Positions 1-12,215 of a stretch of DNA of 64,000 nt are shown in pieces (positions within the stretch are counted from its first letter, which is position 1; each line of letters starts with the position of its first letter). A program made the translations under genes and the position numbers. Under the pieces are notes generated by a model. That model ran no database searches. It was not told where the DNA came from and worked only from the letters and a program-made list of their open reading frames with translations. Source of the stretch: Candidatus Latescibacterota bacterium (GTDB lineage: Bacteria > Latescibacterota > UBA2968); contig OZ242311.1 in assembly GCA_965207885.1 (NCBI GenBank), positions 2,048,001 through 2,112,000 of the forward strand, in the 5' to 3' direction.

Positions 1-291
1 GATGTTTTGCGGGAGGCAGATGCTATTGCCATGCGAATACTCGACCGCGCGGGTCTTATGCCTGCTGTGTCTCAGATGCCGACTGTTCTGGTGCCGTTGA
101 CGACAGATGGACAAGATGAAATTGTGATTTTGCGCCCGATTACGACTCCGGATTTTATGACTGCGCGATTTGCTGAATTGCCCCACAATCTGGTGCGCGA
201 TATGGCGGATGAAATACTGAATCTGCCCGGTGTCGCTGCCGTGGGGTACGACATTACACACAAACCGCCGGGAACTGTGGAATGGGAATGA
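1..291 (+). CDS. guaA: GMP synthase (glutamine-hydrolysing), C-terminal part (5' end outside window)
   Basis: C-terminal signature YDITHKPPGTVEWE and LRPITTPDFMTARF; frame is open from base 1. Confidence 0.93.
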   Translation, partial: DVLREADAIAMRILDRAGLMPAVSQMPTVLVPLTTDGQDEIVILRPITTPDFMTARFAELPHNLVRDMADEILNLPGVAAVGYDITHKPPGTVEWE

Positions 292-914
292 AAGACAAAA
301 GCGGAGGTTCTGGCCTGGGACCTCAAGGGGAATCCAATCACGACAAGGATCAGGAAATTATTGAAGTCCGCGTGGGACAAATTTCTATGAACCTTCTTTC
401 ACTCCTTATGCTTTTTTTCGCGTTTAATATCGCCATTGCTGTTCAATTTTTATTTTTTAGGGAGATCGAATTGCGTTTTCCGGGAATTGATAGTTGGAAG
501 TTATTGGGGTCTGTTATTTTGCTTATTATTTTTCACGAAGGACTCCATGCTGTTGCCGCGCTACTGTGGGGGAGGGTCCAGTGGCGTTCAATACATTTCG
601 GAGTCAAATGGCGACAGCTCATGTTTTATTGTCATTGTGATAAACCGCTAAAAGTGAATACGTATCGAATTTTTGCTCTTTTTCCTCTCCTTGTCACCAC
701 ACCCATTGCAGGTTTTATCCTGTGGTTAGATCCATCTACCTGGTCGCTATTGTTCTTCAGTCTAACAATAGCTGTCTGTGCCGGAGATGTCTTGTTGTTT
801 GTCAAGACCCGCCAGATTGAAAATGACAAATGGATTCAAGATCACGACTCAGAACCCGGTTTCTATATCCTGCCAGAAGCTATCGCTGCATCCCCTGAAG
901 AACACCACAGATAG
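288..914 (+). CDS. DUF3267-like membrane protein, putative zincin metallopeptidase
   Basis: TM helices, HEGLH (HExxH) motif, 'ALFPLLV', 'CAGD', 'IQDH'; ATG overlaps the guaA stop (ATGA 288-291). Confidence 0.7.
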   Translation: MKDKSGGSGLGPQGESNHDKDQEIIEVRVGQISMNLLSLLMLFFAFNIAIAVQFLFFREIELRFPGIDSWKLLGSVILLIIFHEGLHAVAALLWGRVQWRSIHFGVKWRQLMFYCHCDKPLKVNTYRIFALFPLLVTTPIAGFILWLDPSTWSLLFFSLTIAVCAGDVLLFVKTRQIENDKWIQDHDSEPGFYILPEAIAASPEEHHR

Positions 915-954: not shown

Positions 955-1473
955 ATGGGAAAAAATACAGCCTATTACGAGACCATAACGCCTATAACGG
1001 TCTGGTCGGTAATCCTGTCTATCATTATTGTTGCTTCCCCCTGGATTTATTTTTATAGTCCGAAATTTATGTTCTCTTTGGTTATAGCGGCTGTATATGT
1101 GATGTTTTTGGTTATATTCTTGCTTTACGGGCGTTATACGATTCAGATAGACGATACAGCAATCGCATTTGGTTATCGATTTACCAGTAAAGAAAAAGTT
1201 TTATTGAATACAATTGCGTATGCTGAGATTTTCATTTTGGATCTAAAAAATCCCATCAGACGCTTCGCCATTAATACACTCGGAGGACCTCCCGTTTGGA
1301 TTTCGGGTGCTTTGATCAGGTTGAGATTAAACGAAGAATACCTTACTCGATATAAATTCAGGCGAAAAAAGAGAGTGAAACAATTGGTCCTTGTATCGAG
1401 ACAACCCGAATCGGTCTTGTCCGTGCTGTCAGAAAAAGGTGTGCCCGTTCAATCGCGATGGAGAGCAAAATAA
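955..1473 (+). CDS. hypothetical membrane protein (2 N-terminal TM helices plus basic soluble domain)
   Basis: 172-aa ORF, upstream GGAG RBS, two hydrophobic segments, AT-rich. Confidence 0.6.
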   Translation: MGKNTAYYETITPITVWSVILSIIIVASPWIYFYSPKFMFSLVIAAVYVMFLVIFLLYGRYTIQIDDTAIAFGYRFTSKEKVLLNTIAYAEIFILDLKNPIRRFAINTLGGPPVWISGALIRLRLNEEYLTRYKFRRKKRVKQLVLVSRQPESVLSVLSEKGVPVQSRWRAK

Positions 1474-1618: not shown

Positions 1619-1651
1619 AGTGCCTTAGAATATTCTGAGGCACTTTTTTTT
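1619..1651 (+). terminator. intrinsic terminator upstream of the peptide cluster
   Basis: AGTGCCTTAGA-ATAT-TCTGAGGCACT stem followed by a long T run. Confidence 0.7.
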
Positions 1652-1666
1652 GTTTTTTTTGAAAAT

Positions 1667-1682
1667 GGGCACGGCATTTGCA
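1667..1682 (+). promoter_or_regulatory. putative sigma54 (RpoN) -24/-12 promoter
   Basis: GGGCAC-GGCAT-TTGCA matches TGGCAC-N5-TTGCW at all but the first base, with exact GG-N10-GC spacing, about 75 nt before the first GT start. Confidence 0.6.
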
Positions 1683-1755
1683 GAGATGTTGTGTGCAAAT
1701 CGCGTGAACGGGATTGAGGCGGACGAGATGTCCGCGATGATAGAGGGGTGAAATT

Positions 1756-3003
1756 TTGAAAAATACTACAGTTGCGTTTTACAGCCAGCACCTCATTGGC
1801 GTTGGGCACCATTTTCGCAATCGACAGATTGTCAATGAACTGGTCAAAACATGCGATGTGTTTTTCATCGATGGAGGGCGACCAATTCCCGAAGCCGATC
1901 TTGATGAACAGGTGGTACGTATTCCTCTGCTGCCGCTTCGCACGGGCGCACAGGGTATTGAGTCTGTCGATACGGAGAGTGATTTGCAGGCTGTGATGCG
2001 CGAGCGTCAGACACAGCTTTCCGAGGCGATGGAGCAGATTCGCCCCGATGTGTTTTGTGTTGAGTTTTTCCCTTTTTCTCGGTGGTCGCTCAAGAGCGAG
2101 ATCCTCAATACTATTGTCAGACTCAATGAGGTCAATCCCGGTGCGAAGGTGCTGTGTTCTCTGCGCGATATTCCAACGCGGGCAAAAAGCAATGTGTTGC
2201 AGCCGACTGTCGCGCTTGTCCAGAGACGCGATGGAGATGCGATGCGGTTTTATTCAGTGCCTTTTGGTGGGATACATCACGAGTATTTGGCTTTTAATCG
2301 GCGGTATTACGAGGAGGTCGTGCCCGTGTTGAATCAGTATTTCGATGCGGTACTGGTGCATGGCGATTCCCAACTATCCCGGTTGGAAGATCACTTTCCC
2401 TGGACTGCTGATATCGGTATTCCCGTGGTTTATACAGGGTTTGTTTCTGAGAAACTCGGTGACGCATCTCGGCCTGGTCGTGCGCCTGATCGGTATGTGC
2501 TGGTCAGTTCTGGCGGTGGGGCTGAGGGGCTTGCGCTTGTCGCGCCGTGTATTGAAGCGTGGAAACAATTGGAGCGGGACGATGCGCACGATGGACGCGA
2601 GATGGTGATTTTTGCTGGTGCGTTTATAGATGAAAAGCATTTTGACGCTTTGTGTGGGTTGTGCGGTGATGGTCCGTTTCGCATTGAACGCTTTACGTCC
2701 AATTTTTTGGCGTGGATGAAACACGCGGATTTGTCGATTAGCCGGGCGGGCTACAATACGTGTATGAATGTGCTCGAGACACAGGTCCCGTCGATTCTGG
2801 TGCCGAGTATTGCGATGGATGATCAGGTATTTCGCGCGCAGGAGTTGATGGGATTGGGCATTGCCGGGGTGGTACATCCGGATCAACTCGGTGTGGGAAA
2901 GATGACAAAAGCTATTGCCAAAATGCTCGAGAGTCCTGTGCCCGAACACGATCTATTCCTGGATGGTGCCGAGCAAACGCGAAAGTTTATAGAATCAGTC
3001 TGA
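1756..3003 (+). CDS. GT-B glycosyltransferase (COG4671-like, GT1/GT28-C type)
   Basis: YSQHLIGVGH N-terminal motif, VEFFPFSR, VLVHGD, VSSGGGAEG, ADLSISRAGYNTCMN, DQVFRAQ. Confidence 0.85.
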   Translation: MKNTTVAFYSQHLIGVGHHFRNRQIVNELVKTCDVFFIDGGRPIPEADLDEQVVRIPLLPLRTGAQGIESVDTESDLQAVMRERQTQLSEAMEQIRPDVFCVEFFPFSRWSLKSEILNTIVRLNEVNPGAKVLCSLRDIPTRAKSNVLQPTVALVQRRDGDAMRFYSVPFGGIHHEYLAFNRRYYEEVVPVLNQYFDAVLVHGDSQLSRLEDHFPWTADIGIPVVYTGFVSEKLGDASRPGRAPDRYVLVSSGGGAEGLALVAPCIEAWKQLERDDAHDGREMVIFAGAFIDEKHFDALCGLCGDGPFRIERFTSNFLAWMKHADLSISRAGYNTCMNVLETQVPSILVPSIAMDDQVFRAQELMGLGIAGVVHPDQLGVGKMTKAIAKMLESPVPEHDLFLDGAEQTRKFIESV

Positions 3004-3015
3004 ATGAGGTGAAAG

Positions 3016-4419
3016 ATGAAAATTTATGTGTCACATCCATATCACGACCGCGAGAAAGTGATAGCGTCGAATAGCGGGGCGTCCCTTTCGGGTTTTAACC
3101 ATGTGCAGGCGTTATCGAAGTATTGCGAGGTGTATATGCCAGCGTCTGAAGCAGTGGATTATGGTCCGAATGTGCACGGTATTCGACCTGAGTTTGAGAC
3201 GATTGATGCGTCTCGCCAGTGGTTTGCGCGGCAGGATTTTGATGGCGTGCTGATGTTTGAACCCAAAGTAGATGACTTGGCATTTTTTCGCCATGTGTGT
3301 CCCGCACCCATTGTGATTCGGCTGTCGTGTTCTTTTGGGCACAATCGGGATTTTGTCGATAAGGTGCTGAATTGTTATTCACTGCTGCGGCCTTATGATG
3401 CCCTGTCACCCAAGTCGGCGTATGTCGCTGATGAGGTGGGCAAGCTGGTGTTTGACAGATCGTATTTGCACGCGATTACCAATGGGGTAGATGCCGAGGT
3501 GTTTGTGCCGATGGATAAGTTGCAAGCGCGCAAAGAGGTCGCGGATAAGACGGGTGATCAACGTTTTTTAGAGATGCCTGTCGTGGGTTTTTGCGGGCGG
3601 TTTGAGCCGGGCAAGGGTGCGTATCCGTTTTTGCGGATGGCCGATCTGAATCCCAATGTGCTGTTTGCGGTGATTGGCAAGCAGTTCGCACCCGTGACAC
3701 ATGCGCCCAATGTGATCTTTCTGGGCGCGCAACCCTATACGGATATGCCGCTGTATTACAATATGCTGGATGTATTGTGCGCGCTGTCGGTGTATTCGTA
3801 TGAGTCGTGTCCCTCCACTGTGATAGAGGGCATGGCGTGTGGTCTTCCGGTTGTGGCGACAAATTTTGCGGGTGCGCCAGAGTTGTTGGGCAGTTGTGGG
3901 CGGTTGATCGAGATTGAGCGATTTGAAGACGAGCCATTGAATGTGACGGGGTATATCGCTCCTGAAGTGATTTCAGATGCTGTGCGCGATTTTTTGGATA
4001 GCAAGACGGAGCGTGTAGAAATGGGTGAGTCTGCTCGCAAACGCGCACTAGAATTTTCCTGGGATCATACGGCACAGCAGCACATGGCACTGTTTGAAAG
4101 TCTGCGGACCAAACGCGATGCACCTGCCTGCCCGATACCAATAACCGTGAGTTTTACACAGGGGTGTGATATGTCCGGTGTGCCGAAAAGTGTGTCCAAA
4201 GGATTTAACTATTTGGGAAGCGCGCAAGGTCCGTTGCCGCGCATTTCGTTTTTTGGGCAAGATATGTCCCTTATTGAAGGCCTGGGCCTTCACTTGATGC
4301 AACATTTACACCCAAACGAAGTCGAAGCTGCTCTGATAGGCTTATGCGAGACGCGCGATAGAGCTTATAAGACGCTTCGCAAAATCCGACACTTCAGCGA
4401 TATGCTCACGGCTCCCTGA
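3016..4419 (+). CDS. GT4 family glycosyltransferase with about 100-aa C-terminal extension
   Basis: ITNGVD, GRFEPGKG, ESCPSTVIEGMACGLPVVAT (EX7E), FSWDHTAQQH. Confidence 0.85.
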   Translation: MKIYVSHPYHDREKVIASNSGASLSGFNHVQALSKYCEVYMPASEAVDYGPNVHGIRPEFETIDASRQWFARQDFDGVLMFEPKVDDLAFFRHVCPAPIVIRLSCSFGHNRDFVDKVLNCYSLLRPYDALSPKSAYVADEVGKLVFDRSYLHAITNGVDAEVFVPMDKLQARKEVADKTGDQRFLEMPVVGFCGRFEPGKGAYPFLRMADLNPNVLFAVIGKQFAPVTHAPNVIFLGAQPYTDMPLYYNMLDVLCALSVYSYESCPSTVIEGMACGLPVVATNFAGAPELLGSCGRLIEIERFEDEPLNVTGYIAPEVISDAVRDFLDSKTERVEMGESARKRALEFSWDHTAQQHMALFESLRTKRDAPACPIPITVSFTQGCDMSGVPKSVSKGFNYLGSAQGPLPRISFFGQDMSLIEGLGLHLMQHLHPNEVEAALIGLCETRDRAYKTLRKIRHFSDMLTAP

Positions 4420-4472
4420 TTGGCATAGGGATACGGCTTGTGTTGAAGTGGTAAAGAAAGGAGGTGAGAGAA

Positions 4473-4691
4473 ATGACGGAGCGCATTACATCAATGCCAG
4501 CACAAGTTTCTGTGACCTGTGTTCAACTCCCCGGTCAAGAAAGCGAACTGGCACATGGTGAGATGGCGAATACATCAGGAGGATGCATTTTGCCAGGAGA
4601 AGATTTGTTTGAGCACGACCCATTAGAGCCTCTTGAAGATATTATTGATGATATCTGTGATACGGTGAGTGAATGGTGGGCTTCCTGGTAG
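4473..4691 (+). CDS. putative RiPP/secreted peptide precursor A (double-glycine leader, 35-aa acidic core)
   Basis: Strong RBS AAGGAGGT; leader ends ELAHGEMANTSGG; adjacent to a C39-peptidase ABC exporter. Confidence 0.75.
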   Translation: MTERITSMPAQVSVTCVQLPGQESELAHGEMANTSGGCILPGEDLFEHDPLEPLEDIIDDICDTVSEWWASW

Positions 4692-4784
4692 CACCCCCAC
4701 AAGACGCTATTCCTGTTATTCAGATACTGGACGAAAACCATCTTTTTTTGCTGAATCTTACAATTCATTTACCCGGAGGATGTT

Positions 4785-5165
4785 ATGTATAATCGCGTGA
4801 CTTCAGATTCAAATTCAGACGCTGTTTTTGCCTCTTGCACGATACTGCCTATCCATCAAACAACACTAAATGTTGAAGAAATGGAGGGCATTGATGGCCT
4901 GGGAAGTGTGACAGATGCTATTGATGCAGCGGTAGATTATGTTTCTGATGTTGTTGATTCAGTAGGAGATTGTGTTTCTGATTTTGTTGATTCGTTATAT
5001 TTTTACCCCCAGGATGCTGAGCCCATATACCTGCCTGATCCAACTGTTATCCCACCATCACCACGTGATACGACGACTATCACTAATTATATATATTCCT
5101 GCGATAAGACGATCGCGGACTTAGCTTCTGGTGCGACTTGTCCGTGTATGCCGCCGCCGTGGTAA
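4785..5165 (+). CDS. putative RiPP/secreted peptide precursor B (GG-like leader, 11-mer repeats, Pro/Cys-rich tail)
   Basis: RBS GGAGG; leader LNVEEMEGIDG aligns without gaps to the precursor A leader. Confidence 0.7.
   Translation: MYNRVTSDSNSDAVFASCTILPIHQTTLNVEEMEGIDGLGSVTDAIDAAVDYVSDVVDSVGDCVSDFVDSLYFYPQDAEPIYLPDPTVIPPSPRDTTTITNYIYSCDKTIADLASGATCPCMPPPW
4908..5006 (+). repeat. three 33-bp (11-aa) tandem repeats within precursor B
   Basis: VTDAIDAAVDY/VSDVVDSVGDC/VSDFVDSLYFY; DNA 4934-4960 vs 4967-4993 differ at 2 of 27 nt. Confidence 0.8.
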
Positions 5166-5182
5166 GTCCGATGTGCATCAAC

Positions 5183-5226
5183 CCGTCATTCCCGCGCATG
5201 CTCCACGGCGTGTGCAGGAGTGACGG
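5183..5226 (+). other. REP-like stem-loop between the precursor genes and the transporter
   Basis: CCGTCATTCCCGCGCATGC...GCGTGTGCAGGAGTGACGG, 19-bp arms with G-U pairs and one mismatch, no U tail. Confidence 0.65.
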
Positions 5227-5344
5227 TGTTATATGAGGCAGGACTTACGTCACTCAGTACTGGAGAGTAGATAGCTTGCCTGGAGCATTTTAGAAATCAG
5301 CATTGTAGTTGAGTTATAGACATGTTACAGGACGGTTGGAGAAA

Positions 5345-8300
5345 ATGAATCTTTCGCACTTTTTCACCAAAAACTCGGTGCGGTCACAATCTGTTCACTT
5401 TCCCTTTGGAGGTGTTGTTTTTCAACAGGGTCAGGCGGGTGAGGCGTTTTACATTGTGCAGTCTGGGCGGTTGCGGGTGATTAAGCAGGATGAGAATGGA
5501 AATTCGACAACTGTGGGATATTTGTATGCGGGCGATCATTTTGGCGAAGGGGCATTGTTGACCAGAGAGGGACATCGGGCAACGGTGCGAGCGGTTGAGG
5601 ATGCGGAGGTGTTGCAGGTGCCGAAGGATGAATTTTTTAAGGCTGTAAGAAAAAATTCTGATGTAAGGGCGTATCTTGAGGAGCAGGTCGCCAGTATTGC
5701 GTATCGGGATTTTACGCGTTTTTTGAAAGGGGATGTTCCGAGTCAGGCAATGCGGGTGTTGTTTGCGCGGCTGAAGCGCGAGGCGGTTGAGGAGGGTGTG
5801 ACCGTTGTTGAGCGAGGTCAGTTGGGTCAGCGATTTTATTTGATCGGTAGCGGTCAGTTGGAGGCTGTGTCAGAAGACGGGGATACGGTGATTTTGAGTG
5901 CAGGTGATTATTTTGGCGATGATAGAGATGATAAAACGGTCATTCGCAGTCGGTGTCATAGCGTGCTCTTTTGTATAGATAAAAGCAATTTTAATAAGTT
6001 AAAAGCTATGATACCGGAATTTGATGAGGCGTTGGAGAAAGGTCGCATATCGCGTGGAGATCAGGGGGCGAATGGGGCATTGTTTCGAAATGCGCGACAA
6101 GTGCCCGAACCACCTGTTGACCGGTCTGATGAAAAACTGGCATCCAATACAGCATCCAATGTAGTCAATATCAGAATAGACGGTGCAAAACCATACGTTC
6201 CCACATGGTTTCGCTTTCCATTTTTGAAGCAACACGATCAATCGGATTGTGGCGCGGCGTGTTTGGGCATGATTTGTAAGTATTACAAGATGCCGATTGG
6301 GTTGAACAGGCTGCGCGATATGTCCAATGTGTCGCGGTATGGCACGTCGATGGCGGCTTTGGCTGAGGCTGCGGAAACCATAGGTTTTGTCACGCGTGGG
6401 GTGCGCACGGGGTATGAGGCTCTGATGCGAACAGAACTGCCAGCTATTCTGCACTGGGAGGGCAATCACTTTGTGGTCTTGTATCAGATTGATAAAAAGG
6501 AGGTGAAAATAGCAGACCCCGGTGTGGGTATTCGCAAGCTGTCGCGGGCAGAGTTTGAGAAGGGCTGGACAAACAGGGCACTGTTGTTGGAATACACGGA
6601 TCAGGTGGCAGAGAATGAACCGTCTCAGTCTTCTTTTAAGCGGTTTTTTCCACTGGTCAGGCCCTATACAGGCATATTGATTGAGGTGTTGCTGGCGTCT
6701 CTGGTGCTCAGTTTGTTCGGTCTGGCGTCGCCCATTTTTATGCAGACGATTGTCGATCAGGTCTTAGTGCATCACGATAAGGATTTGTTGAATTTGATGC
6801 TGGTAGGGATGGTGGTCGTCGCGTTGTTCCAGATGGGTACATCGACGTTGCGCGTCTATTTAATCGGGTATGTGAGTGCGCGGTTGAGCATTGCGATGTT
6901 GTCGCGTTTTTATCGGCATTTACTATCGCTGTCCATGCAGTTTTTTGCTCTGAGGCGCACGGGCGATTTGACCACGCGATTTCGAGAGAATACAACGATT
7001 CGGCGGTTGTTGACAGGTACGACGGTTTCTGCGGTTCTGGATTTTATCATGCTCTTTGTCTATCTGGGCTTGATGTTTTATTACAACGCTGAACTGACGT
7101 TGGTCATGCTGATTTTTGTGCCGATCTCTGTAGGGCTTACGCTGATTTACACACCCATTTTGAAGTCTTTCAGCCAGCGCGCTTTTCTGGCGCGTGCCGA
7201 ACAATCATCTGTTTTAATCGATTCGCTGCAGGGCATTGATGCGGTCAAAGCCGCGGCAGTTGAGCGCGCGACGCGGTGGCATTGGGAAGGCAAGTTCACG
7301 AAGGAAATTCAGATTGGCTTTCAACGGTTAAAAATGCAGATGTTGTTTGGGGGGATAGGAAGTGTGATCAATTTGTTGAGCAGTACGGTAATTTTATGGT
7401 ATGGCGCCTCATTGGTGATTGCGGGTAACCTGTCGGTTGGACAGTTGATGGCGTTTAATGCGCTGATTGGCAATGTGATGGGACCGATTATGGGGTTAAT
7501 TGGGATATGGCCGCAGGTGCAAGAAGCGCGTATTGCTCTGGATCGGCTGAATGATGTGTATGATACGCAGATGGAAGATGCGCGGCAACAGGGGCAGGGT
7601 TTGATCTTAAAGCATTTGGTAGGACGGGTGGTTTTTGAGGGGGTATTTTTTAGATATGGTGTTGGTTCTGACGAACCTTATGTGTTGAATAATATAGACC
7701 TGACGCTTGAGCCGGGTCAAAAAGTTGCAGTTGTGGGACGCAGTGGTGCGGGCAAAACTACGTTGGTAAAGTTAGTGCCCCGTTTGTTTGATCCGTCAGA
7801 AGGGCGTGTGACGCTTGATGGTATGGATGTGCGAGATCTGGATCCTCATTGGTTGCGTCGGCAGGTGGGTATGGTGATGCAGGAGCCGTTTTTGTTTTCT
7901 GGCACGATTGCAGAAAATATCGCCATTGGTCAGACAGACGCGGACATGGACCGCATTTTGGAAGTGGCAAAGCTATCGTGTGTACACGATTTCGTAAGCG
8001 ATATGCCTTTGGGCTATGAGACAAAGGTCGGTGAGCAGGGCGTGGGGCTATCAGGCGGACAACGACAACGGATTGCAATTGCACGGGCACTGTATTGTGA
8101 TCCGAAAATTTTGATTTTTGATGAGGCGACCAATGCCTTAGATACGGATTCAGAACAGGCGATTCAGGCGAATTTAGATCTGTTTTTGGATGATCGCACG
8201 GCGTTGATTATCGCGCATCGGTTGAGTACAGTGCGCGATGCGGATGCGATTGTGGTCTTAGATAAGGGGCATATTGTGGAGATGGGCACACACGATGAGT

Positions 8301-8359
8301 TGATGGTGCAACAGGGTTTGTACTATCACATGTGTAGTCAACAGTTGCAAGTAGTATGA
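5345..8359 (+). CDS. peptidase-containing ABC exporter (2x cNMP-binding + C39 peptidase + TMD + NBD)
   Basis: FGEGALLTREGHRATVRA (cNMP); QHDQSDCGAACL, HWEGNHFVV, IADP (C39 triad); GRSGAGKT, LSGGQRQR, IFDEAT, IAHRL. Confidence 0.93.
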   Translation: MNLSHFFTKNSVRSQSVHFPFGGVVFQQGQAGEAFYIVQSGRLRVIKQDENGNSTTVGYLYAGDHFGEGALLTREGHRATVRAVEDAEVLQVPKDEFFKAVRKNSDVRAYLEEQVASIAYRDFTRFLKGDVPSQAMRVLFARLKREAVEEGVTVVERGQLGQRFYLIGSGQLEAVSEDGDTVILSAGDYFGDDRDDKTVIRSRCHSVLFCIDKSNFNKLKAMIPEFDEALEKGRISRGDQGANGALFRNARQVPEPPVDRSDEKLASNTASNVVNIRIDGAKPYVPTWFRFPFLKQHDQSDCGAACLGMICKYYKMPIGLNRLRDMSNVSRYGTSMAALAEAAETIGFVTRGVRTGYEALMRTELPAILHWEGNHFVVLYQIDKKEVKIADPGVGIRKLSRAEFEKGWTNRALLLEYTDQVAENEPSQSSFKRFFPLVRPYTGILIEVLLASLVLSLFGLASPIFMQTIVDQVLVHHDKDLLNLMLVGMVVVALFQMGTSTLRVYLIGYVSARLSIAMLSRFYRHLLSLSMQFFALRRTGDLTTRFRENTTIRRLLTGTTVSAVLDFIMLFVYLGLMFYYNAELTLVMLIFVPISVGLTLIYTPILKSFSQRAFLARAEQSSVLIDSLQGIDAVKAAAVERATRWHWEGKFTKEIQIGFQRLKMQMLFGGIGSVINLLSSTVILWYGASLVIAGNLSVGQLMAFNALIGNVMGPIMGLIGIWPQVQEARIALDRLNDVYDTQMEDARQQGQGLILKHLVGRVVFEGVFFRYGVGSDEPYVLNNIDLTLEPGQKVAVVGRSGAGKTTLVKLVPRLFDPSEGRVTLDGMDVRDLDPHWLRRQVGMVMQEPFLFSGTIAENIAIGQTDADMDRILEVAKLSCVHDFVSDMPLGYETKVGEQGVGLSGGQRQRIAIARALYCDPKILIFDEATNALDTDSEQAIQANLDLFLDDRTALIIAHRLSTVRDADAIVVLDKGHIVEMGTHDELMVQQGLYYHMCSQQLQVV

Positions 8360-8409
8360 GGGGCTGGGTGGGTGGGCTGATCGCTTGGGGACTGGTGAGC
8401 GGGTGGTCG

Positions 8410-8437
8410 TCTCACGTTTTACTTCTTACGTCTTACC
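8410..8437. repeat. heptamer tandem repeat
   Basis: TCTCACG TTTTACT TCTTACG TCTTACC; same family as 21381-21412 on the opposite strand. Confidence 0.5.
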
Positions 8438-8457
8438 GCTTTTAAGGAGTCTGCATC

Positions 8458-9840
8458 ATGGCAGAACCGCTTTTGGAGACATCGACCGAGACAATGTCTC
8501 CAAAAATTATCCAGGAGCAAGATGACGCGGCAGAAGAGGTGCATGCATTTATGGGGTCTTTGCGGCCCTTTTGGGGACGCGCATTGCTCTATATTGTCTT
8601 GCTGTTTGTAGGTATTGCCATTATCTGGGCGTGGTGGAGTAAGGTAGATGTGGTAGCATCAGCCCCTTTTCGGTTGGTGCCTTTGGGACAGGTGAAGACG
8701 ATGCAGGCGCAGCGAGGTGGTGAGATTGAGTTGATTGGTGTTAAGGAAGGAGATCATGTCGAGAAAGGGGAGGTATTGTTCAAGCTCAAATCGTGGGAGA
8801 CCTGGGGAGATTTGCGGGAATGGGAACAGGCAAAGATGGCTTTTCAAAAGGCAGAGTACGATTTCAAGACGGTGTTGCCTCAAAGGGCGAGGTTGAATCG
8901 AGAGACGATAGGGGCATTGGAACAACGTCTTTCCGTTTTGCAGCGGTTTATGGAGGCACATCAGAATGCGCTGGAAGATTATCAAAGTGATATGGGCGGT
9001 GTTGAGGGATCGAAAACCAAAACATCTGATGCGGGGTTGCAAGCGCAGATCGGGTTTCGTCAGGCTGAAATTGACCTTATGAAAGGGGAGTTTTTACAGC
9101 AAAAGACGCTGTTTGAGCGCGAATTGATCAGCCGGGCAGATATGAATCGCGCGCGCGTGCAGTATTTGAGTGCTCTATCCGCGCTTCCATCGCGCATGTC
9201 GGAGATATACAAGAATGAAATGGCTGTGGCTGATCTCAAGCGTCAAATCACAGAAGCGCGTATTGCACACGAGCGCGAGGCATCGCAGATGCGACATGCT
9301 TATGAGACTGCACACTTGCGATTGGAACAGGCGCGCAAACGCATTGATCGCACCCTCGAAGCCGAGTCGGATTTGATTCTGGCTTCTGTATCGGGCATTG
9401 TAACACAGGTGATGGTGAATGCAGTTGGACAGGTGATCAGTAAGGGGCAACCTTTGGTTGCACTGGCACCGGCCTCAGCGCCGATGGTTGCAGAAGTGAT
9501 GGTGTTGAATAAAGATGTGGGCTTGCTCAAACCCGGTCAGTTGGTCAAGCTGAAATACGATGCGTATGCCTTTCAGGATTTTGGTATCAAACGCGGATGG
9601 CTTACATCCATCTCGCCCGATGCGGTGATTGATGAACGTATTGGACCGATATTTAAGTGTGTTGTCGAACTGGAAGAAAATACGATGCGCGTGAAAGGAT
9701 ATGACAAGCCTCTGATGTTTGGTATGAAGGGCACGGCTGAGATGATGACAGATCGGCAATCGGTTTTGCTGATGTTGCTTTCTCCCTTGCGACAACTTTA
9801 CGAGTCGGCGAAGTACGATGTGCAGGAGGGTGCGTTGTGA
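8458..9840 (+). CDS. HlyD-family type I secretion membrane fusion protein
   Basis: N-terminal TM, VKEGDHVEKGEVLF, long coiled coil, NKDVGLLKPGQLVKLKYDAY, ISPDA, GMKGTAE. Confidence 0.92.
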   Translation: MAEPLLETSTETMSPKIIQEQDDAAEEVHAFMGSLRPFWGRALLYIVLLFVGIAIIWAWWSKVDVVASAPFRLVPLGQVKTMQAQRGGEIELIGVKEGDHVEKGEVLFKLKSWETWGDLREWEQAKMAFQKAEYDFKTVLPQRARLNRETIGALEQRLSVLQRFMEAHQNALEDYQSDMGGVEGSKTKTSDAGLQAQIGFRQAEIDLMKGEFLQQKTLFERELISRADMNRARVQYLSALSALPSRMSEIYKNEMAVADLKRQITEARIAHEREASQMRHAYETAHLRLEQARKRIDRTLEAESDLILASVSGIVTQVMVNAVGQVISKGQPLVALAPASAPMVAEVMVLNKDVGLLKPGQLVKLKYDAYAFQDFGIKRGWLTSISPDAVIDERIGPIFKCVVELEENTMRVKGYDKPLMFGMKGTAEMMTDRQSVLLMLLSPLRQLYESAKYDVQEGAL

Positions 9841-10610
9841 TGTCAGAAGTACTAATTCAGGTCAATGGTGCCGAGGTGTTATTAAGCGATATCGTACGGC
9901 AATTAGGTGTTGCTGATAATCTGCGTTTTTTTAATGAATTTGCGCGCAGGGAATTGATACGGCAACTCGCCCGGCGCGAGGGTGTTTGTGCAGCGCGTGA
10001 AGATATTCAGCGCAAGGTAGATGAATGGCGGTATCAACATCGCCTGGAACGGGTGGAAAATACAGAGGCCTATCTCGCAAAGCGAGGTATTACGCTTCAG
10101 GATGTGGCAGAAGATGCCGAGGTGAGGCAACTGGAGTATTTGCTGTCTGAGAAGATTGCCAAAGGACAGATCGAATCCTATTTCGCTCAACGCACACTGG
10201 CTTTTGATGAGGCGGAGCTTTGCTGGATTTTTCACACGGATAAGGGTGTGATTGACGAGGTTGATTTGCAGATTCGAGACGATGGAGCAGATTTTTACGC
10301 GATGGCGCGTCGGTTTTCTCAAGATGCACGCACGCGATCAGGTAGTGGCTTTTTAGGTCGTGTTCGGCGCAAGCAGTTGCCAAAGGGGATTGCTGCACGC
10401 GTGTTTGCTGCTTCACCGGGTGAAATTTTGGGACCGGAAAAAGTATCGAAAGGCTTTGCGCTGTACCTGGTGCAAGAACGCTACCCGGCAACACTAAATG
10501 AGCGGACAAAAAAGGAGATCCGCAAGCACCTGTTTAATCAGTGGTTGCAACGCGAAGTGCAGCGGGCAGATATACGGTATCCGATTTGGCAGACGGAAAT
10601 TAAAAAATAG
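9837..10610 (+). CDS. parvulin/PpiC (SurA-like) rotamase-domain protein, cytoplasmic
   Basis: DFYAMARRFSQD..GSGFLG..LP..VF..PGEILGP..GF; no signal peptide; GTGA overlap with hlyD. Confidence 0.8.
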   Translation: MMSEVLIQVNGAEVLLSDIVRQLGVADNLRFFNEFARRELIRQLARREGVCAAREDIQRKVDEWRYQHRLERVENTEAYLAKRGITLQDVAEDAEVRQLEYLLSEKIAKGQIESYFAQRTLAFDEAELCWIFHTDKGVIDEVDLQIRDDGADFYAMARRFSQDARTRSGSGFLGRVRRKQLPKGIAARVFAASPGEILGPEKVSKGFALYLVQERYPATLNERTKKEIRKHLFNQWLQREVQRADIRYPIWQTEIKK

Positions 10611-10651: not shown

Positions 10652-11503
10652 CTAAGGCATCACAGCTTCTTTCCCCTGGTATTCTCGGATCCAGCCTTTT
10701 AATGGCACATCTTCTTCTGTTGGGGATGTGTAGCCGTGAATGCCAGAAGGGGAATGCCGGCACATTTGCTTTCGGATTGGGCTTAGTTCATCCCAGAAAT
10801 TTTCCACGTTGCATTCGCCGCGTGCCTGCAGCCAGCGATAAGCGTATCCGTAGAAGAGCACCTTGCGGGGTTGTGTCCAGTAATTTGCACTCGCCGAATG
10901 CCACAACCGGCGATCAAAAATAACGGCAGTACCCCGGGGTACAAGGATGGGTACGGCGCCTTTTACCATCTGATTGCGATTTCCGTTCGGCCAAGTCATC
11001 TTATTTTTTACCTGGCTTCCCGGTATGACGTGAAAATTGCCGCGTCCCGGTTCGCTTGTATCCGAGAGAAAGTAGGCCACTTTGACCGATAAGCGCGGCC
11101 TTGGGTTTGTCTCCATCTCTTGATTCACGCGCCCGGTATCTTGATGCCAGCCGATTCCCAAACCGCGTTTGCTATCTGGTGGTTCGGGAGGTGTCACGTT
11201 CAGGTGTGCCAGATAGATTTGAATATTCCACCCTAAGATTCCCCAAACTTTTGGGAATGTGGTGTAGTGATCTATCAGGTCAATAAATGCACGGTCCCGC
11301 CCCAGAAAGTCGCGTTCGTGAACACGCTTATGTGGTTCGATTTTTTGCTTTTCGCGTTCTACGGCATTGACGCGGTCAACCGCTCTGGTCAATTGTCTTC
11401 TTTTTGCGTCGCTCAGCGCGTTTTCAATGATCAGATAACCCCGATCCTCAAATTCGAGCCGTTCGTCTTCGGTCAGGCAATGATTTAGCCAGCGTCTGTT
11501 CAT
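10652..11503 (-). CDS. phytanoyl-CoA dioxygenase (PhyH) family 2OG-Fe(II) oxygenase
   Basis: GYLIIENAL, WHQD, VIPGSQ, GTAVIFDRRLWH, RKVLFYGY. Confidence 0.88.
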   Translation of the reverse strand: MNRRWLNHCLTEDERLEFEDRGYLIIENALSDAKRRQLTRAVDRVNAVEREKQKIEPHKRVHERDFLGRDRAFIDLIDHYTTFPKVWGILGWNIQIYLAHLNVTPPEPPDSKRGLGIGWHQDTGRVNQEMETNPRPRLSVKVAYFLSDTSEPGRGNFHVIPGSQVKNKMTWPNGNRNQMVKGAVPILVPRGTAVIFDRRLWHSASANYWTQPRKVLFYGYAYRWLQARGECNVENFWDELSPIRKQMCRHSPSGIHGYTSPTEEDVPLKGWIREYQGKEAVMP

Positions 11504-12139: not shown

Positions 12140-12215
12140 TGGAGCCGCCCAGCGGACTCGAACCGCTGACCGCCTGATTACAAATCAGGTGCTCTACCAG
12201 CTGAGCTAGGGCGGC
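12140..12215 (-). tRNA. tRNA-Thr (anticodon UGU), CCA encoded
   Basis: GCCGCCCTAGCTCAGCTGGTAGAGCACCTGATTTGTAATCAGGCGGTCAGCGGTTCGAGTCCGCTGGGCGGCTCCA: cloverleaf, TTCGA T-loop, TGT anticodon. Confidence 0.97.

Follow-up and report, generated by a model that had tools for sequence, protein, structure and literature searches.

A peptide export cassette with an accessory, possibly peptide-glycosylating module in sponge-associated Candidatus Latescibacterota

What do two glycosyltransferase (GT) genes do at the head of an operon that goes on to encode two small peptides and a peptidase-containing ABC transporter (PCAT)? The question is raised by a locus in a 64,000-nucleotide stretch of DNA (contig OZ242311.1, positions 2,048,001 to 2,112,000; hereafter the window), which lies 2.05 Mb into the single 6.23-Mb contig of a Candidatus Latescibacterota metagenome-assembled genome (MAG). 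The host is an uncultured sponge-associated lineage of this phylum; the 25 related loci come from Candidatus Latescibacterota or uncultured Latescibacteria MAGs, and sponge- or marine-metagenome runs of nine studies contain DNA near-identical to the window. A first, sequence-only reading had proposed that the GTs glycosylate the peptides before export. Our analysis suggests that the locus is one copy of a lineage-specific multi-copy cassette which makes and exports polymorphic peptides and carries an accessory glycosylating module, a reading that, taken whole, we hold to be evenly poised between right and wrong.

Between 1.6 and 10.6 kb of the window there are seven genes, all on the plus strand (open reading frame (ORF) calls, Pfam, NCBIfam). 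GT1 and GT2 are used here as names of two of these genes and their products, and enzyme families are called families throughout. The genes, with one domain of interest, are:

1756..3003, plus strand: GT1, 415 aa (Pfam Glyco_tran_28_C, E 2.3e-12)
3016..4419, plus strand: GT2, 467 aa (Pfam Glycos_transf_1, E 2e-18; also Glyco_trans_1_4)
4108-4416, plus strand: C-terminal domain of GT2, residues 365-467, unique and conserved
4473..4691, plus strand: pep1, precursor of 72 aa (AGGAGG ribosome-binding site; leader hidden Markov model (HMM), E 5.5e-25)
4785..5165, plus strand: pep2, precursor of 126 aa (GGAGG ribosome-binding site; leader HMM, E 5.1e-21)
5345..8359, plus strand: PCAT, 1004-1016 residues (frame open from TTG 5309; ATG 5345 likely start)
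8458..9840, plus strand: HlyD-family type I secretion adaptor (TIGR01843, 216.3 bits, cut-off 208.65; HlyD_3, HlyD_D23)
9837..10610, plus strand: SurA/parvulin-like (PpiC-type) protein (Pfam Rotamase, 3.1e-12)

The Pfam and NCBIfam assignments agree with the sequence-only reading in naming a C39 PCAT with cyclic-nucleotide-binding (cNMP) domains, a HlyD protein and a parvulin. They agree also with its statement that LanM, YcaO, radical-SAM and TolC genes are absent from the locus, the lanthipeptide, YcaO, radical-SAM and TolC families being found in none of the 11 proteins scanned with Pfam between 1 and 12.1 kb.

The arrangement recurs. Twenty loci were fetched around GT1 matches and scanned by tblastn with the window proteins, and 15 of them have GT1, GT2, a variable region of 0.8-7 kb, PCAT, HlyD and PpiC in this order at identities of 50-98%; the gene-neighbourhood search that had been suggested as a check thus shows the combination to recur and does not refute the proposal. 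These 15 cassettes span two diverged classes and a second family (L029). GT1 is found in 20/20 genomes of the genus, often in several copies, and in three other genera, making 25/168 genomes and 4/49 genera across the phylum (E ≤ 1e-30), where genome counts within one genus are not independent. At an identity of at least 49% there are 37 GT1 matches. A PpiC-like match follows 30 of them, 7-16 kb downstream and on the same contig and strand, and the other seven lie on fragmented assemblies (G003, G012, G013, G024), with no contrary case. The concern that close GT homologues might sit mainly away from peptide and PCAT loci is therefore not borne out, since only paralogues of about 42% identity lie elsewhere. 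On metagenome contigs with a GT2 relative of at least 48% identity, GT1 is directly upstream in 3/3 (a metagenome scan with the GT2 alignment gave four short contigs).

Genomes hold several cassette copies whose peptide sets differ, and each copy within a genome keeps its own GT pair (88-98% identity). The variable region contains one to several leader-bearing ORFs together with CPBP/Rce1-like, DUF3267, orf172-like and TPR genes and, in L012, an apparent insertion sequence element (by eye). Contigs from the metatranscriptome run X20 match parts of GT1, GT2, PCAT, HlyD and the PpiC-like gene of a relative at about 90-93% identity, which is presence in an RNA library and not proof of transcription. 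Coverage over 4710-5311 was nil in runs X20 and X5 and almost nil in X6; this is not read as absence because the stretch is the hypervariable part of the cassette.

The last three genes very probably encode an export machine for the small peptides, as judged from their sequences. PCAT has two cNMP_binding stretches followed by Peptidase_C39 (2.8e-39), ABC_membrane and ABC_tran domains, and falls into the bacteriocin ABC family TIGR01193 (531.6 bits, cut-off 523.85). Its C39 domain aligns to PCAT1 (4ry2, E 9e-22) with the Q..DCG, HFVV and ADPG motifs kept, which leaves the Cys/His/Asp triad intact, as had been claimed. Since tblastn alignments begin at residues 7-13, ATG 5345 is the likely start. 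The PpiC-like protein scores 85.3 bits against TIGR04500 (cut-off 180), matching profile positions 88-336 only and leaving the N-domain (1-87) unmatched, and has no N-terminal signal sequence visible by eye. It follows HlyD in every cassette with or without GTs (15 full cassettes, 14 later-fetched loci and a second trio in the same genome), and because GT-less cassettes carry it too, it belongs to the export core and not to the GTs. TolC-type outer membrane proteins (PF02321) give 14 half-matches above cut-off elsewhere in the genome and none in the window.

With its leader pattern, C39 triad, HlyD protein and genomic TolC, the cassette appears to work like the type I export of class II microcins and double-glycine bacteriocins. 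Class II microcins (MccV with CvaAB-TolC, and MccE492 and MccH47 of class IIb) likewise have GG or GA leaders, with PCAT and membrane fusion protein (MFP) encoded locally and TolC elsewhere; as described in part of PMC10233263, several peptides share one PCAT/MFP, some are net negative, and in class IIb the tailoring module is optional and modification is not always needed for activity. The Latescibacterota cassette differs in leader family and phylum, in the cNMP domains and PpiC-like partner of its exporter, and in having no siderophore genes. The GT of class IIb microcins acts on enterobactin and not on the peptide. A cNMP-type domain N-terminal to an active C39-ABC exporter, with small GG-motif cargo, is known from HetC of Nostoc and PteB/EbfG of Synechococcus (parts of PMC10986499 and PMC4997328), whereas the PCAT described here has two such domains, adjacent and polymorphic cargo genes, and GTs. 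HlyD and the PpiC-like gene adjoin it, and no MFP gene lies near HetC. In the rosaritide system (MirA/MirB/MirC/MirD) a SurA/PpiC-like cytoplasmic protein is encoded with the precursor of a ribosomally synthesised, post-translationally modified peptide (RiPP) and with a PCAT, and MirC (TIGR04500, PpiC-like) is required by, and co-purifies with, the graspetide-modifying enzyme, according to a portion of PMC13097080. The cassette protein differs from MirC in its score (85 bits against 180), in lacking the N-domain and in retaining a parvulin domain; the modifying enzyme there is an ATP-grasp protein, absent here, and the PpiC-like gene is found in GT-less copies as well. The type of export is thus already known, and what appears to be new is the leader family and the architecture of an exporter trio with an accessory GT-B module.

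The two small ORFs share a leader of about 38-40 residues, behind which the cores are hypervariable. The best start of pep1 is ATG 4473, with AGGAGG 7 nt upstream, and pep2 begins at ATG 4785, preceded by GGAGG. Double-glycine leaders had been expected in both. This holds for pep1, whose leader (4473-4583) ends in Gly-Gly, but not for pep2, whose leader (4785-4901) ends in 'IDGL' and thus has Gly at -2 and Leu at -1 at the aligned position, hence a non-canonical cleavage site. The peptides are strongly anionic, as had been noticed earlier: the pep1 core of 35 aa has 11 D+E, no K+R and two Cys, of which one occupies core position 1, and the pep2 core of 87 aa has 14 D+E, two K+R, 16 S+T and four Cys.

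The two leaders seeded an iterated HMM, which picked up 79 ORFs (59 unique) across the first 55 loci and more in later and GT-less loci; in the genome of the window it found pep1 and pep2 only. Across 63 aligned leaders Gly -2 and Leu -19 are invariant, and Ser/Thr -31 (58), Leu -12 (56; otherwise I, M or V), Cys -22 (50), Pro -18 (49) and Met -7 (45) recur in most; position -4 is I, T, V or A, and at position -1 there are 43 leaders with Gly and 18 with Leu. The C-terminal half thus reads as a classical double-glycine signal (Gly -2; hydrophobic -4, -7 and -12), to which the N-terminal half adds R-x-x-S/T-x-P...F-x-x-C-x-x-L-P. Searched against 1.84 billion representative proteins, the 40-position leader profile gave 103 matches at E ≤ 0.001 (13 at ≤ 1e-10), all of 40-191 residues and nearly all matched at their N-terminal end. 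At E ≤ 0.01 neither pep1 nor pep2 matched any family of Pfam or NCBIfam, and the leaders fit no curated model (NHLP, Nif11, others); the family appears to be previously undescribed. The ratio of nonsynonymous to synonymous substitution (dN/dS; rough values from short sequences) is 0.19-0.6 for pep1 against six homologues in sister genomes, 0.14-0.28 for the pep2 leader and 0.91-1.36 for the pep2 core, and 0.14-0.8 for leaders overall, with one exception at 2.9. Purifying selection on the leader is indicated by these values and the small ORFs are, on this evidence, real genes, which answers the doubt that they might not be conserved. Everything behind the cut site is hypervariable, the 77 peptides falling into 24 core clusters.

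Two further observations concern variation of the peptide genes. L047 (12618-17925, plus strand) contains a tandem triplication of a two-peptide unit, in which peptide one reads 'SGG-YVGWPDSLYDVIADY…HPWLM' and peptide two is hydrophobic and has at its end 4-7 consecutive Cys and then DD; local duplication of this kind seems to be how the peptide sets expand. In contigs of run X11, position 4898 is joined back to 4455 via 220 other letters, and 4981-5078 is replaced by 108 others. The peptide genes (window 4455-5178) appear to vary in natural populations while the flanking genes stay alike.

The two GTs match GT-B families only, which places the system outside the known glycocins, as the sequence-only reading had it. 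GT1 is a GT-B enzyme of the GT1/GT28 clan (natural-product/MurG-like) and GT2 a GT-B enzyme of family GT4. The AlphaFold2 (AF2) model of GT1 is confident (pLDDT 86.5), and its nearest PDB folds in Foldseek (E 5e-14 to 1e-10, TM 0.5-0.6) are kitacinnamycin GT 6j31, OleD/OleI, CalG1-4, YjiC and MurG, one peptide-antibiotic GT among them; in a sequence profile search against the PDB, residues 312-397, the nucleotide-sugar-binding part, alone match. No other cassette gene is as conserved as GT2, whose identity reaches 98%. E263 and E271 are invariant columns of its alignment and presumably represent the EX7E motif of retaining GT4 enzymes. Its score of 28 bits against TIGR04157 (glyco_rSAM_CFB; cut-off 400), which we take to be the GT of a GG-leader peptide system in Bacteroidales, reflects general GT4 similarity only. 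In many copies GT1 is fused, at its front or its back, to a GT4 that makes a third GT-B domain, which gives the module two or three GT activities.

The C-terminal extension of GT2, of about 100 residues, was found in only 34 GT4 clusters, mostly of 467 aa, among 5.8 billion proteins, and gave no Pfam hit (E ≤ 10), no PDB sequence hit (E ≤ 10) and no usable Atlas match. The AF2 model of GT2 is poor (mean pLDDT 55.5), and the domain is predicted at low confidence as strand-strand-(strand)-helix-helix-helix, an order that recalls a RiPP recognition element (RRE). This private domain may hold the peptide; its assignment as an RRE is unsupported.

Does the tailoring part of such cassettes vary? A distant class of the trio (PCAT about 55%, PpiC about 39%) without GTs is present in several genomes. 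The genome of the window has a second PCAT-HlyD-PpiC trio (G000:C1, about 5320208-5340951) at 55%, 49% and 39% identity to the first, also without GTs. Upstream of it are a very acidic precursor of 198 aa whose leader (…GLTCKPLSILSETIS.QEM.MARGG) is related, two proteins of about 450 aa, an apparent transposase (by eye) and a 484-aa frame with a PqqD-like domain, whose radical-SAM identity was assigned by eye. Because this second trio carries a different set, the export trio seems to accept tailoring sets of different kinds in the slot that precedes the precursor genes, the usual manner in which RiPP clusters differ from one another.

Does the cassette need its GTs, and do these act on the peptides? 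We lean slightly towards an action on the peptides, as the gene arrangement suggests, and the observations of this paragraph and of the next but one weigh against it. In genus g6 the PpiC-like gene is present in 13/13 genomes (64-71% identity), and GT1 gives weak matches (E 1e-4 to 1e-6) or none. Five g6 loci have leader peptides, CPBP, DUF3267, PCAT (72-75%), HlyD (73-75%) and PpiC in this order, with no GT1 or GT2 within 20 kb. Their peptides belong to the same leader family, retaining the conserved positions including Ser/Thr -31 and Cys -22, with cores that include pep1-like, Gly/Ala-rich ('IDGL-WDWGD'), Cys-rich-tailed and '...DWYGDR...' types. In a quick IQ-TREE tree of 25 PCAT rows, rooted on the distant paralogue class and with L017 and L027 dropped for stops, g6 and the GT-bearing cassettes of window type form sister clades (SH-aLRT 100), and the GT-bearing cassettes of the 50% class and of L029 fall outside the g6 clade. 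On this tree at least three changes of state are required for the GT label, most simply one gain and two losses. As g6 keeps the leaders, similar cores and the trio without GTs, and nests among GT-bearing cassettes, the GTs are dispensable add-ons; they are not needed for export or peptide function, and the g6 cassettes weaken the case that they glycosylate the peptides. Since the GT-less g6 cassettes have the same leaders, the N-terminal half of the leader is not a GT-specific handle.

A TMEM260-like O-mannosyltransferase was considered as a replacement glycosylation route in g6 and judged unsupported, as it stands beside 5/5 g6 loci but in one genus only, and orthologues in the genome of the window lie elsewhere (67-69% identity). 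The protein (PF11028, 6e-20) is encoded divergently from all five g6 cassettes (L056-L060), and a family GT2 enzyme lies near three of the five (L056, L058, L059); examples of these features are at L056:13856-16051 (plus strand) and L056:18838-19578 (minus strand). The neighbourhood may be synteny only, or another route to glycosylated exported peptides.

Other points against come from the GT1 paralogues and from the cassette itself. Paralogues of about 42% identity occur as a GT4-GT28 fusion, the same fusion as in some cassettes, in a polysaccharide-type cluster with UDP-GlcNAc 2-epimerase, UDP-sugar dehydrogenase and another GT4 (L019, L030). A paralogue of about 43% heads another export locus (L020:7765-17486, minus strand; L028:2959-12061, plus strand), which may be a second link of the GT1 family to exported small proteins. 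This locus consists of AraC, the GT, HlyD, a Thr-rich acidic protein of about 107-123 aa ending in W-D-W…DDT, TPR/Peptidase_C39_2, an ABC exporter and a subtilase. At L021:707-9555 (plus strand) a 376-aa paralogue lies between an acyl-carrier protein (ACP) and MauE/DoxX, Yip1, HlyD and a MacB-type ABC exporter, in what looks like a glycolipid or lipopeptide export locus; a subtilase-DUF1611 fusion precedes it. Because paralogues sit in polysaccharide-type and other exporter loci, a lipid or glycan acceptor is possible for the GT1 family. The cassette has no sugar-nucleotide genes, and no acceptor-like residue is conserved across all core types in the core alignment. The GT2 C-terminal domain scored an hhalign probability of 0.9% against 15 PqqD-like domains of these genomes, in a test of low power. 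The cut position of pep2 is Gly-Leu rather than Gly-Gly, a type seen in 18/63 leaders. Some copies are decaying, with stops in the PCAT match of L017 and L027, fragments of PCAT, HlyD and PpiC beside the 43% GT1 in L028, and a split PCAT with an N-terminally shortened precursor, without GTs, in L069.

Several of these points would fit GTs that spare the peptides and make a glycolipid or envelope glycan, for self-protection or receptor masking or as hitch-hikers, while the peptides are exported unmodified: the GT28/GT1 clan includes lipid-acceptor enzymes, MurG among them and among the fold matches of GT1, the paralogues stand in a sugar-nucleotide cluster and beside ACP, HlyD and MacB, g6 cassettes work without GTs with the same peptides, and the cores share no acceptor residue. 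We consider this quite unlikely. The GTs are in the same operon, 53 nt ahead of pep1, and an envelope function shared by all copies would make an own GT pair for each of them redundant. The cassette lacks genes for a flippase, polymerase or lipid carrier, no other context was found for the GT2 family with its private domain, and presence of the GTs does not complement absence of the CPBP or DUF3267 genes. A peptide acceptor is further suggested by the strict linkage of the GTs to the cassette across diverged copies, by the logic of the tailoring slot, by the natural-product-type fold of GT1 and by the precedents of the rosaritide PpiC-like partner, the cacaoidin GT4 and the optional tailoring of class IIb microcins.

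Where on the peptide might a sugar be placed? Cys, Ser, Thr or Tyr stands first in 28/57 GT-linked cores and in 0/17 g6 cores, the sequences being related; counted by cluster the contrast is about 6-7/17 against 0/10 and is weak. Ser and Thr make up 11% of GT-linked and 6% of g6 cores, and the median core net charge is -8 (K+R 3%) and 0, respectively. Core position 1 as an acceptor site is a hint only. The target could instead be a constant element, either the leader (for example Ser/Thr -31, conserved in 58/63) or a protein of the export machine, with the sugar serving as an export or quality mark that is lost with the leader. The leader is the sole constant part of the precursors, and GT2 (up to 98%) is far more conserved than the cores it accompanies, but the GT-less g6 cassettes keep the same leader positions, Ser/Thr -31 and Cys -22 included, and we know of no precedent. 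We regard this possibility as highly improbable.

If the GTs act on the peptides, the most likely role of GT1 and GT2 would be to assemble a short glycan on the precursors in the cytoplasm, prior to cleavage and export. The C39 domain of the cNMP-bearing ABC exporter is expected to cut behind the double-glycine signal, and the exporter would hand the peptide by way of HlyD to a channel of TolC type whose gene lies elsewhere, with the cytoplasmic SurA/parvulin-like protein as a constant helper. In its fullest form this would be a new class of glycosylated ribosomal peptide, in which two or three GT-B enzymes place a di- or trisaccharide on anionic hypervariable peptides, the GT2 domain is a new precursor-binding module, and a novel 40-residue leader, a nucleotide-gated C39 exporter and a SurA-like chaperone complete the system; we advance this tentatively, as falling somewhat short of an even chance.

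Well-studied glycosylated ribosomal peptides use SunS-type GT-A enzymes and are found in Firmicutes. Glycocins (sublancin/SunS, glycocin F, pallidocin, thurandacin) resemble the cassette in their double-glycine-leader peptides, C39 PCAT and a GT gene beside the precursor. Cytoplasmic glycosylation of such peptides and their export by a C39 PCAT are described in parts of PMC6405829 and PMC12457901. The cassette differs in that its GTs are GT-B enzymes (GT1/GT28 clan, family GT4) and not SunS-type GT-A enzymes of family GT2, that it has two to three GT domains where glycocins have one, and that the leader is 38-40 aa long and conserved in its N-terminal half; its hypervariable, anionic cores do not show the helix-loop-helix disulfide pattern of glycocins, it has an architecture of Gram-negative type that includes HlyD and the PpiC-like protein, and its glycosylation is putative. 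As no SunS-type GT-A is present, the cassette is not a glycocin system. Cacaoidin, a class V lanthipeptide with an O-Tyr disaccharide, resembles it in that its RiPP cluster encodes several GTs, one of them a GT4 proposed to add the second sugar (in the relevant part of PMC8068269). It differs in its actinomycete host, in the use of family GT2 enzymes for the first sugars, in its lanthipeptide scaffold, in the lack of a PCAT/HlyD/PpiC trio and in an unrelated precursor family. A list from 2021 in that part of PMC8068269 gives glycocins, NAI-112 and cacaoidin as the only glycosylated ribosomal peptides. No description of a GT-PCAT-HlyD-PpiC cassette was found in the literature searched, itself partial in coverage, and passages of two papers on sponge Latescibacterota give generic RiPP-like, RRE and ranthipeptide calls only (PMC12993501, PMC9426513).

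What would the peptides do once exported? Hypervariable acidic cores together with CPBP/Rce1-like, DUF3267 and small membrane-protein genes would fit a pattern of bacteriocin- or microcin-like antagonism with immunity, and we think an antagonistic role reasonably likely. With or without sugar, the peptides might instead be matrix, signalling or host-directed factors, comparable to EbfG or the cargo of HetC. HetC, whose N-terminal cNMP-type domain resembles those of the PCAT here, binds ppGpp and serves cell differentiation, and small GG-motif proteins act in biofilm formation (parts of PMC10986499 and PMC4997328, respectively). The strong negative charge of the cores (median net charge -8, K+R 3%) and the occurrence of the organism in sponge metagenomes from several studies speak for such factors. 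Bacteriocins do not usually have strongly anionic cores, a further point to be set against an antagonistic role. Such non-antibiotic functions nevertheless seem somewhat unlikely given the hypervariable cores, with dN/dS of about 1 in that of pep2, and the several copies per genome with differing peptide sets. The Gly/Ala-rich hydrophobic cores and Cys-rich tails resemble, as we understand them, class II microcins and bacteriocins, and the CPBP/Rce1-like genes present in the copies are presumably of known bacteriocin-immunity types.

If the GT-B pair does decorate double-glycine peptides, the enzymology of peptide glycosylation would be widened, new tools for glycosylation guided by a leader would come within reach, sponge-associated Latescibacterota would be credited with a biosynthetic capacity, and the GT-less sister cassettes would allow the same peptides to be compared with and without sugar. 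The phylum has been flagged as biosynthetically rich and uncharacterised (part of PMC9426513). Even if the peptides are not glycosylated, there would remain a new, well-defined leader family and a conserved cNMP-PCAT/HlyD/PpiC trio that accepts different tailoring modules, and the natural pair of cassettes with and without GTs makes the glycosylation question directly testable.

The surroundings of the operon contain the following features:

282..914, plus strand: DUF3267 putative zincin-type membrane peptidase (Pfam PF11667, E 3.9e-17; HEGLH motif in the translation)
955..1473, plus strand: orf172, small membrane protein without Pfam match
1619..1644, plus strand: terminator-like hairpin with T-run (11-pair stem, five GC pairs, tail TTTTTTTGTT)
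10652..11503, minus strand: PhyH gene, convergent, outside the seven-gene operon

The sequence-only reading had bounded seven co-oriented genes by a terminator with a promoter and by a convergent gene. The genes, the terminator and the convergent gene stand; the promoter is not supported, as promoter-like sites are not above chance (8 seen, 11.6 expected). The hairpin at 1619-1644 is the strongest terminator-like site between 1300 and 11600 and would separate the upstream accessory genes from the GT-led operon. Homologues of orf172 occur inside the variable region of L014 (61.6% identity) and upstream of GT1 in L015 and L022 (83%), and in other copies of the cassette, the GT-less ones of g6 included, homologues of the DUF3267 gene follow the peptide genes and precede PCAT. 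Because homologues occur inside the variable region of other copies, both genes probably belong to the cassette system, the DUF3267 gene as a candidate accessory, immunity or processing gene and orf172 as a candidate accessory or immunity gene. PhyH was considered as a tailoring oxygenase and rejected, being convergent and accompanying only the syntenic copy (L013, L015, L016, L022), at a variable distance. Further downstream, a tRNA gene at 12143-12215 of the window (minus strand; Rfam RF00005, 69.9 bits) lies between orf201 and a D-Ala-D-Ala ligase-like ORF, and these genes flank the syntenic cassette copy in sister genomes.

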